A stretch of 64,000 bases of DNA, taken from positions 4,509 through 68,508 of IMG/VR virus record IMGVR_UViG_2756170246_000001. One strand, 5' to 3'. The position numbers and the translations under genes are program-made. Shown here one piece after another: positions 41,715-42,681 of the stretch. A model generated the notes under the pieces. That model was not told the origin of the DNA. It was given only the letters and a program-made list of their open reading frames with translations, and searched no databases. The stretch comes from a virus. Its lineage: Duplodnaviria; Caudoviricetes. Positions within the stretch are counted from its first letter, which is position 1. Each line of letters starts with the position of its first letter.

Positions 41715-41965
41715 GGCCGCCCCCGTGGAACCGACCGCCAGTGCTCGACCACGGTCTCATCCCGGTCCTGGCGGCCTTGCTTCGACCATGGGTGACGGCT
41801 GGTCCAGCCGCAGGGGCAGACCGCGAGGGCTTCACCAGTTTTCGGGTCGGTCTGCATCGAGACGACATGCGCCGCGAAGAGCGGCTCGCACCGCTCACAG
41901 AACGGGATACCGCGTTCGTCGTTGAAGCGGCGGCCGTCGCATACGACGCAATCGGGGAGGCTCAT
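41711..41965 (-). CDS. Small Cys-rich (CxxC) protein
   Basis: CVVC...CERC...CPCG. Confidence 0.55.
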   Translation of the reverse strand: MSLPDCVVCDGRRFNDERGIPFCERCEPLFAAHVVSMQTDPKTGEALAVCPCGWTSRHPWSKQGRQDRDETVVEHWRSVPRGRP

Positions 41966-42681
41966 CGCGGCACCCTCACGCGGTGCCGGAACACCGGCTC
42001 GAAGCCCTTCGGTTCGAACTGATAGCCGCGACCCCAGACGGTGCGGACGACATCGAGGCCATCATTCATCTCGAGCAGCTTGTGGCGGAGCTTGCAGACG
42101 AAGACGTCGATGATCTTCTGCTCCGGCTCGTCCTCACCGCCGTAAATGTGATCCATCAGGTCGGCTTTGGAAAACACCTTGCCGGGGTCGAGTGCCAGCG
42201 TGGTGAGCAGCTTCGCCTCCGCCGGTGCCAGCCGGCTCTTCCTGTCGCCGGCTTCGACAAGGCCGGTGTCGGCGTCATAGATGCAGCCCGGCATCTTGAT
42301 GAAGAGGTGGTCGTTGTAGGTGCCGCGCCGCACCAGCGCCTTCAGGCGCGCGATGAACTCGTCGCTATGGATCGGCGCGGGCTGGACATCATCGGCGCCG
42401 CAGCGGAGGATCGTTGAGGCGGCGAGGGAGGTGCACTCATCGGCGTCGAGCAGGACGAACAGGATGTTTTTCACGTCGGCGCGACGGAAGTCGCGGCAGG
42501 CCATTGCGGCGAAGCCGCTGTTCGCCGCCCTGATGACGCCGACCGCCTCGGGGTCACGGAAGAGCGCGCTGCACAAATCCTGCGGGAGTGGCTCGCCAGC
42601 GCTCTCGAAGCCGGCGTCCTCGGCCGCGGCGCGCAGCGCGCTCTCGATCTCGCGGGATGGGGCGGAGACGACGACACGCAT
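41962..42681 (-). CDS. ctrA: CtrA-like response regulator with degenerate receiver domain
   Basis: [25 protein letters not shown] and [25 protein letters not shown]...TVWGRGY closely match CtrA as recalled; acidic pocket, phospho-Asp and Lys not conserved. Confidence 0.85.
   Translation of the reverse strand: [239 protein letters not shown]

Follow-up and report, generated by a model that had tools for sequence, protein, structure and literature searches.

Why should a temperate phage of an alphaproteobacterium carry a relative of its host's cell-cycle regulator, and what could such a protein do once the site of its phosphorylation has been lost? CtrA, whose activity depends on phosphorylation and proteolysis, acts as the central switch of the cell cycle in Alphaproteobacteria. 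The question is raised by the gene for a CtrA-like protein, here called pseudo-CtrA, in a stretch of 64,000 nucleotides (the window) that corresponds to positions 4,509 to 68,508 of the IMG/VR virus record IMGVR_UViG_2756170246_000001 (Duplodnaviria; Caudoviricetes) and lies within a 7.45-Mb alphaproteobacterial genome, that of a Mesorhizobium-type host with a genuine CtrA elsewhere. A preliminary description of this locus read the product as a CtrA mimic with a dead receiver and an intact DNA-recognition helix. The analysis reported here supports descent from CtrA together with the loss of canonical phosphorylation, and we lean towards the reading that pseudo-CtrA would act on host genes by binding CtrA boxes as a constitutive dimer that needs no phosphorylation. 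The gene and its parts are as follows.

41962..42681, minus strand: pseudo-receiver CtrA-like gene (P0001), 239 amino acids plus stop; open reading frame (ORF) call, Pfam PF00486, NCBIfam NF045991
42325..42681, minus strand: aspartate-less pseudo-receiver, (beta-alpha)5, residues 1-119; predicted by AlphaFold2 and Foldseek, no Pfam Response_reg
42325..42429, minus strand: alpha4-beta5-alpha5 face, LxxGADDVQP...E..ARL.AL.RR, residues 85-119; family alignment
42007..42309, minus strand: OmpR-type winged helix-turn-helix domain, residues 125-225; Pfam Trans_reg_C, AlphaFold2 secondary structure
42067..42126, minus strand: recognition helix of CtrA type, residues 186-205; CtrA-specific residues kept
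41965..42006, minus strand: family-specific basic tail GFEP....R.R.., residues 226-239, in place of the Ala-rich end of CtrA; family alignment

The stop codon occupies 41962-41964, and the ATG at 42681 gives a protein of 239 residues with the N-terminus MRVVVSAPS, while an alternative start at 42726 would give a longer frame of 254 residues. The start at 42681 is favoured because it overlaps the stop codon of the upstream ORF (cTGATG), has a GAGG situated 9 nt upstream and yields the MRV that forms the N-terminus of most homologues. In Pfam searches, the C-terminal half of the protein matches Trans_reg_C (PF00486; residues 148-222) at 65.8 bits against a gathering cut-off of 26.2, and Response_reg (PF00072) is absent at E 0.01. 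Among 40 NCBIfam matches, the top one is CtrA itself (NF045991, 110.8 bits; PhoB scores 81), with residues 63-221 aligned to profile positions 64-220; this is far under the cut-off of 350 bits, and the host's own CtrA (L001:1501-2193) reaches 424 bits. Similarly, BLASTP aligns residues 92-225 with host CtrA at 42% identity (E 3e-35) and gives no significant similarity for residues 1-90.

That the DNA-reading elements are retained, as the preliminary description had held, is borne out by pairwise alignment to host CtrA, in which the recognition-helix stretch is kept and the motifs YGG.DEPE.KIIDVF.CKLR.KL and TVWGRGY are intact. The C-terminus is likewise RVRVPR, as had been reported; pseudo-CtrA thus ends in VPR, and the ends of other family members vary. 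The ClpXP signal of Caulobacter CtrA is a C-terminal Ala-Ala, and the host CtrA of the present system ends in VSA rather than AA. Any escape from ClpXP, which the preliminary description had raised as a possibility, would rest on the altered C-terminus of the phage protein.

Pseudo-CtrA belongs to a sizeable family. A search of 5.8 billion proteins recovered at least 48 clusters at 40-93% identity, every one of which has PF00486 only and no PF00072; the sources named for them are Mesorhizobium, Aminobacter and Aquamicrobium, and the matches that rank below the family, at up to 114 bits, are true CtrA proteins with both PF00072 and PF00486. In a 50%-representative library, 35 proteins were found at E <1e-30.

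Whether this family descends from CtrA or from another OmpR-type regulator can be judged from the columns of its alignment. We compared 26 family members with CtrA proteins and with 18 non-CtrA OmpR-type paralogues of the host, column by column, taking as CtrA-specific any position conserved in at least 90% of CtrA proteins and at most 20% of host paralogues; 22 positions qualify, 12 of them between helix 2 and the wing. Most of the family keeps 11 of these 12, namely K171 (100%), L178 (73%), G181 (92%), E186 (54%), K188 (100%), I189 (92%), F193 (54%), C195 (96%), K196 (96%), W215 (92%) and R217 (96%), and the same residues are found in 0-11% of the paralogues. For the recognition-helix residues K188, I189, F193, C195 and K196 (host CtrA numbering), the figures are 54-100% in the family versus 0-6% in the paralogues. 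The window protein is identical to CtrA at 10 of the 11 scored positions. Within the DNA-binding domain, the family as a whole has lost the CtrA residue at one of these 12 positions only, Met182, which is part of the loop joining helices 2 and 3; the ten CtrA-specific positions that fall in the receiver, the linker or the first sheet have for the most part been lost too. Because the same pattern recurs in all 26 aligned representatives, neither the losses nor the retained residues can be put down to chance.

The phylogeny that had been proposed as a check places the family with CtrA and not with other OmpR regulators, at 99-100% support. In a full-length tree of 65 rows, the 18 host paralogues are separated from CtrA plus the family with a Shimodaira-Hasegawa-like approximate likelihood-ratio test (SH-aLRT) value of 99, and the family is monophyletic at 100. 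In a tree of the DNA-binding domain, computed with a careful search, the paralogue split has support of 100/99, the CtrA clade 96/75 and the family, as its sister, 99/95. When 26 further viral variants are included, the split remains at 100, and the family joins other viral forms with degenerate receivers at 89. The family is therefore sister to the sampled CtrA clade and not nested in it, on a long stem; because of the length of this stem, a recent capture from the present host is not supported. Taken together, residues and trees make it well supported that pseudo-CtrA would descend from CtrA rather than from another OmpR-type regulator.

What remains of the receiver? The preliminary description had noted that SAP stands in place of the acidic pocket, that position 51 has no phosphoacceptor Asp and that TKP has become PAP, and alignment to host CtrA agrees on each count, with SAP opposite the host's IEDD and Ile/Arg at position 51. 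In the window protein, all the hallmarks of a phosphorylatable receiver (acidic pocket, Asp51, Ser/Thr79, Lys101) are absent. Across the 26 family members, the CtrA residues E7, D8, D9, D51, S79, Y98 and K101 are kept in 0-27%, with D51 and K101 never retained. Since the family as a whole lacks every hallmark residue, the conclusion that canonical phosphorylation of pseudo-CtrA would be impossible is supported.

Loss of the phosphorylation site does not mean loss of the domain. Modelled by AlphaFold2 with the family alignment as input, pseudo-CtrA has a mean predicted local distance difference test score (pLDDT) of 89 and a predicted template modelling score (pTM) of 0.73; residues 2-118 are predicted to run from beta1-alpha1 to beta5-alpha5 in receiver order with pLDDT of 90-97, followed by the winged helix. 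The best PDB matches of the model in Foldseek are the full-length OmpR/PhoB regulators KdpE, PrrA and MtrA (E about 1e-12), and the phosphorylation-independent HP1043 (2hqr) and RitR are also among the matches. The predicted fold is that of a receiver without Asp at the end of beta3, which, on model and alignment, places pseudo-CtrA among the aspartate-less atypical response regulators. On the alpha4-beta5-alpha5 face, L92, G95, A96, D97, D98, E108, A111, R112, A115 and R119 show little or no variation within the family and occur in CtrA too. Outside this face, a family-specific motif ending in GVI, from alpha2 to beta3, is conserved, and so is the basic tail GF.P....R.R; in the tail, G226 is nearly invariant and the rest is partly conserved, with pLDDT <50 at residues 234-239.

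Both halves of pseudo-CtrA are under purifying selection: in pairwise comparisons among five close relatives, the ratio of nonsynonymous to synonymous substitution rates (dN/dS) is 0.15-0.30 for the pseudo-receiver half and 0.08-0.34 for the DNA-binding half. A decaying remnant of a captured ctrA gene is ruled out by the dN/dS of the receiver half and by conservation across the 48 or more clusters. The "dead receiver" of the preliminary description is thus right as to the phospho-site, which has been lost, and wrong insofar as it implies decay; the model presents the N-terminal domain as a well-folded, selected pseudo-receiver with an intact dimerisation face, not debris.

If the reading head is that of CtrA, where are its sites? 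The CtrA box is TTAA-N7-TTAA. Neither a perfect copy of this sequence nor of TTAACCAT occurs in the 64-kb window, in which a single match with one mismatch is at the chance level, and 372 kb of 21 related phage loci contain no perfect box. The host genome has 30 perfect boxes versus about 0.8 expected from its TTAA frequency, and the count peaks at the 7-base spacer (30 versus 2-11 for spacers of 3-15); these boxes include TTAACCCGCCCTTAA, upstream of a PBP1A-type gene, and TTAACCATTCGTTAA. Because the boxes are in the host and none is in the phage window or the related loci, the target would be the host rather than the phage. Regulation of phage promoters through canonical CtrA boxes was dropped as a candidate for want of any in the window, with the exception of a box at the attachment site, which is taken up below.

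The setting of the gene is that of a temperate phage. Virion genes occupy 3-30 kb of the window (tail proteins, tape measure, major head protein, portal, large terminase). Farther to the right, all on the minus strand, are genes for a primase-helicase, a ParB-like protein, two HNH proteins and a RuvC-like resolvase, and the rightward arm encodes a YqaJ-type exonuclease together with a helicase. An exact 16-bp direct repeat, TTAACCCGCCCTTAAA, bounds the element at G000:C1:182384-182399 and 251791-251806, 69.4 kb apart; the left copy lies 4.9 kb to the left of base 1 of the window, and the right copy corresponds to window coordinate 64509-64524, 509 bp past its end. The earlier claim that the gene is phage-borne is confirmed by tail, capsid, portal, terminase and integrase genes and by the flanking repeats. 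Of 201 species in the host genus, only 7 carry the gene, as do 3 of the 151 genomes that were sampled from the GTDB family, and this patchy spread over species fits a mobile element. With virion genes, integrase, flanking repeats and patchy distribution in agreement, pseudo-CtrA is the gene of a temperate phage. The features of this setting that matter for what follows are listed here.

62717..64000, plus strand: integrase, running off the window (phrog_1, E 3.4e-16), just inside the right prophage end
45852..46460, minus strand: GcrA homologue in the same early operon (Pfam PF07750, 105.5 bits)
45329-45829, minus strand: GapR-like ORF of 166 amino acids, after the GcrA homologue (PF10073, 13.9 bits, E 0.043)
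42681..43088, minus strand: upstream ORF of 135 amino acids, translationally coupled to pseudo-CtrA, with a coiled coil at the N-terminus and a helix and wing that are weakly OmpR-like (IRSHIKRIRKKL...TVYAFGFEM)
48827..48856, minus strand: promoter-like site at the head of the leftward early operon (consensus scan)
48818-48845, plus strand: rightward promoter-like site, back to back with the leftward one (consensus scan)

The early module has the order orf221, GcrA, GapR-like ORF, RuvC, orf123, pseudo-CtrA, orf159, primase, and this order recurs in every one of the 8 other genomic loci and also in 13 IMG/VR viral genomes (59-68 kb). Pseudo-CtrA is flanked by orf123 and orf159, and the ParB-like gene is 2.6 kb away. 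The GcrA homologue accompanies it in 7 of the 8 genomic and 11 of the 13 viral loci, and GcrA homologue and faintly GapR-like ORF adjoin each other in nearly all related phages; the identity of the latter as GapR is not established at a PF10073 score of 13.9 bits. The ORF of 135 amino acids immediately upstream, found in only 2 of 21 related loci, was considered as a second CtrA-like head and rejected, since its BLASTP comparison with P0001 is not significant and its score against the CtrA hidden Markov model is about 0. A sub-threshold Trans_reg_C match in this ORF (16.3 bits, E 0.011) suggests a distant OmpR-type wing at most.

Within 40.5-50.5 kb, the divergent pair listed above comprises the only promoter-like sites, and these 2 compare with 1.7 expected by chance. 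As no such site is nearer, pseudo-CtrA would be situated about 6 kb inside the leftward early operon, without a promoter-like site of its own. In three RNA-seq runs from one sample, contigs cover the whole of 29.5-49.5 kb, with low depth over the pseudo-CtrA gene; since genes cannot be ranked by contig depth and the reads may stem from carried-over DNA, these runs permit no conclusion on expression. As a separate observation, contig depth in the three runs peaks at 48162-49500 (199, 76-98 and 51-57, versus 1-56 elsewhere in the 20 kb), and high depth over the divergent-promoter and immunity region, here a matter of contig depth only, is what would be expected of a lysogen expressing its repressor.

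Two other features of the region may be mentioned at this point. The two HNH genes are adjacent paralogues of HNH_3 type (39349-40179 and 40176-40802, both on the minus strand) with 43-45% mutual identity across loci, positioned between pseudo-CtrA and the ParB-like gene. In addition, there are two proteins with a MUG113/T5orf172 domain (window 47327-47815, minus strand, and L105:8280-8717, plus strand), one of them fused to HTH_3 near the immunity region and the other between the integrase and the right attachment site.

CtrA-like proteins are found in other phages too. Among the best 80 of 203 IMG/VR loci with a relative, a CtrA-type head, K..G..E.KI...FCK...W.R, recurs in four settings. One is the pseudo-receiver family itself (L024-L036). 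Another comprises near-complete CtrA proteins in which Asp51 is replaced by Glu and the second Asp of the pocket by Pro, Ser or Asn (L037, L039, L043, L047, L051 and L059); position 51 is Ala in L057 and Asn in L049 and L052. These near-complete forms cluster near rhizobial host CtrA in the tree, and three of their genes adjoin phage genes for DNA polymerase, helicase, methylase or integrase. The third setting consists of other degenerate receivers (L045, L046, L054 and others), and the fourth of ORFs of 110-200 amino acids with the DNA-binding domain only (L061, L066, L068, L074, L086, L102 and others), which carry 8-11 of the 11 CtrA-specific residues. The coordinates of three genes of the second setting are these.

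L037:7728-8489, L047:7725-8567 and L059:7755-8657: viral CtrA genes with Asp51 changed to Glu and a broken acidic pocket, E-P-D or E-S-D

In a different group of loci (L070, L075, L077, L078, L080, L081, L083 and L089), a provirus of about 40 kb ends with just the last 55-60 typical ctrA codons, which suggests, from its sequence, a group of prophages that may integrate into the 3' end of ctrA and bring a replacement end with them.

What, then, would pseudo-CtrA do? OmpR/PhoB regulators dimerise through alpha4-beta5-alpha5 upon phosphorylation, and ChxR, HP1043 and GlnR do so without it (PMC12632262, PMC3960148, PMC8345958, PMC4395418). The analogy leads us to expect that the phage protein would dimerise constitutively and read DNA with a head of CtrA type. 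In the reading that we favour, it would be made from the leftward early operon alongside the GcrA homologue, would dimerise without phosphorylation in the manner of the aspartate-less HP1043 and ChxR, and would occupy TTAA-N7-TTAA boxes of the host chromosome whatever the state of the CckA-ChpT relay, with the outcome that CtrA-controlled genes (cell cycle, envelope, motility) would escape host control during phage development. The preliminary description went further and had pilus and flagellum genes switched off; this part does not hold up well, since genes of this kind that CtrA activates should rather be switched on by a mimic with constitutive activity.

The direction of the effect is a separate matter, and the sequences would accommodate either a mimic or an antagonist of CtrA. 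As an antagonist, pseudo-CtrA might occupy boxes without productive contact with RNA polymerase, or form mixed dimers with host CtrA through alpha4-beta5-alpha5, a face whose residues are common to CtrA itself; the CtrA programme would then be off and the cell held in a replication-permissive, GcrA-type state suited to phage DNA synthesis. We consider this rather unlikely, and yet several of the points that weigh against a constitutive mimic are points in its favour. Met182, the one CtrA-specific residue lost from the DNA-binding domain, is replaced, mostly by Glu, across the whole family, in a loop that contacts RNA polymerase in relatives, so that activation of transcription may be altered. 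A CtrA mimic together with a homologue of GcrA, an S-phase factor, is not obviously coherent, and the linkage of the two in nearly all loci suits an antagonist better, as does the proposal made for phiCbK that the GcrA of a phage drives its host towards replication (PMC3556154). Other reservations about the favoured reading are of a general kind: the early timing of expression is deduced solely from operon position; the stem of the family, at 1.4-1.9 changes per site, leaves its attachment within or beside CtrA ambiguous in the trees; and that the dimer is constitutive, that it binds boxes, that the host is its target and what follows physiologically are all steps that we infer. Nevertheless, the remainder of the loop, YGG.DEPE, is kept, and viral contigs encoding CtrA with Glu at position 51 point to mimicry as a general phage strategy. 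Asp51 to Glu is an activating change in Caulobacter CtrA, the classic laboratory phosphomimetic allele D51E.

Two further explanations would place the action of pseudo-CtrA elsewhere. It might be an internal regulator that acts on phage genes or on integration and excision, for example through the attachment-site core, for the repeat TTAACCCGCCCTTAAA at both prophage ends is itself a perfect CtrA box, the integrase adjoins it, and a related prophage in another species is enclosed by the same pair of repeats (G329:C1:86117 and 149572). We regard this as improbable, however: the right copy is a normal host site, 61 bp 5' of the host PBP1A-type gene just outside the prophage end; in two genomes with other family members, the box is single-copy on another contig and the prophage sits elsewhere; and no further box is present in the window or in the 372 kb of related early regions. 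Alternatively, the pseudo-receiver might serve as a protein decoy that sequesters ChpT, the phosphotransferase, or the ClpXP adaptors of CtrA, with DNA binding secondary. A receiver fold that has been kept under selection would fit such a role, but the most conserved CtrA-specific part of the protein is its DNA-reading head, receiver-less versions exist in other phages, and helix 1, at which receivers dock their phosphodonor, shares almost nothing with that of CtrA; a decoy is accordingly the most improbable of the readings considered here, and very much so.

Pseudo-CtrA can be placed among known regulators with some precision. It is similar to CtrA (NF045991), its nearest relative in the trees, in domain order, in the residues of recognition helix and wing and in those of alpha4-beta5-alpha5, but there are also substantial differences: it lacks the acidic pocket, the phospho-Asp, Ser79, Tyr98 and Lys101, residues 1-90 can barely be aligned, Met182 is replaced, a basic tail takes the place of the Ala-rich end, the score of 111 bits is under the 350-bit cut-off, and the gene is phage-encoded and patchy among species. 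The protein is outside the CtrA equivalog family NF045991, because it falls short of the 350-bit score and does not have the phosphorylatable receiver by which that family is delimited. HP1043 (HsrA) of Helicobacter and ChxR of Chlamydia resemble it in that a receiver fold without a phosphorylation site is joined to a winged helix, and both dimerise and bind DNA without phosphorylation (PMC4395418, PMC12632262, PMC3960148, PMC8345958); aspartate-less receivers as a class have been reviewed (PMC4395418, PMC12632262). Unlike the phage protein, HP1043 and ChxR are chromosomal, have regulons of their own and are not virus-carried copies of a host master regulator, and they show no specific sequence relation to the phage family beyond the superfamily. 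Overall, we would class the protein as a new branch, specific to phages, of the aspartate-less OmpR/PhoB regulators, descended from CtrA.

Phages of Alphaproteobacteria are known to tap the cell-cycle circuit of their hosts, either with a GcrA homologue, phiCbK gp222 (PMC3556154), or by using host CtrA through phage CtrA boxes (PMC9437464). The present phage is like these cases in tapping the host circuit and in having a GcrA homologue, here in the same operon, and it differs from them in that the published cases involve a copy of GcrA or CtrA sites, whereas here a CtrA-derived protein is found and the phage has no CtrA boxes. Full-text literature searches, which cover few subscription journals, turned up no paper in which a CtrA or CtrA-like regulator encoded by a phage is described. 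Likewise, the cultured-phage records of INPHARED contain no close homologue; the best matches there, at <40% identity, are mostly ordinary response regulators in records that look bacterial.

A broader proposal, which we put forward tentatively, is that phages of Alphaproteobacteria may have evolved phosphorylation-independent CtrA repeatedly, by at least three routes, and that takeover of the CtrA regulon, often with a phage GcrA, would be a general and undescribed infection strategy. The routes would be a conserved pseudo-receiver, a near-complete CtrA with Asp51 changed to Glu and a broken acidic pocket, and the DNA-binding domain alone. The viral CtrA proteins in which Asp51 has become Glu would provide a striking counterpart in nature to the classic laboratory allele.

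Finally, it should be considered what a viral CtrA that needs neither phosphorylation nor control by proteolysis would mean. If this reading is true, phages attack the cell-cycle circuit by supplying a regulator of their own, the means known so far being to read CtrA through its sites and to carry GcrA, and the protein would be a natural tool for uncoupling the CtrA regulon from CckA-ChpT. The family would also offer a ready-made, selected, aspartate-less CtrA head with which binding and activation without phosphorylation can be studied. In rhizobia, moreover, loss of CtrA accompanies bacteroid differentiation, and pseudo-CtrA may allow one to ask how forced occupancy of CtrA type affects the replication, division, envelope and motility genes of these bacteria.

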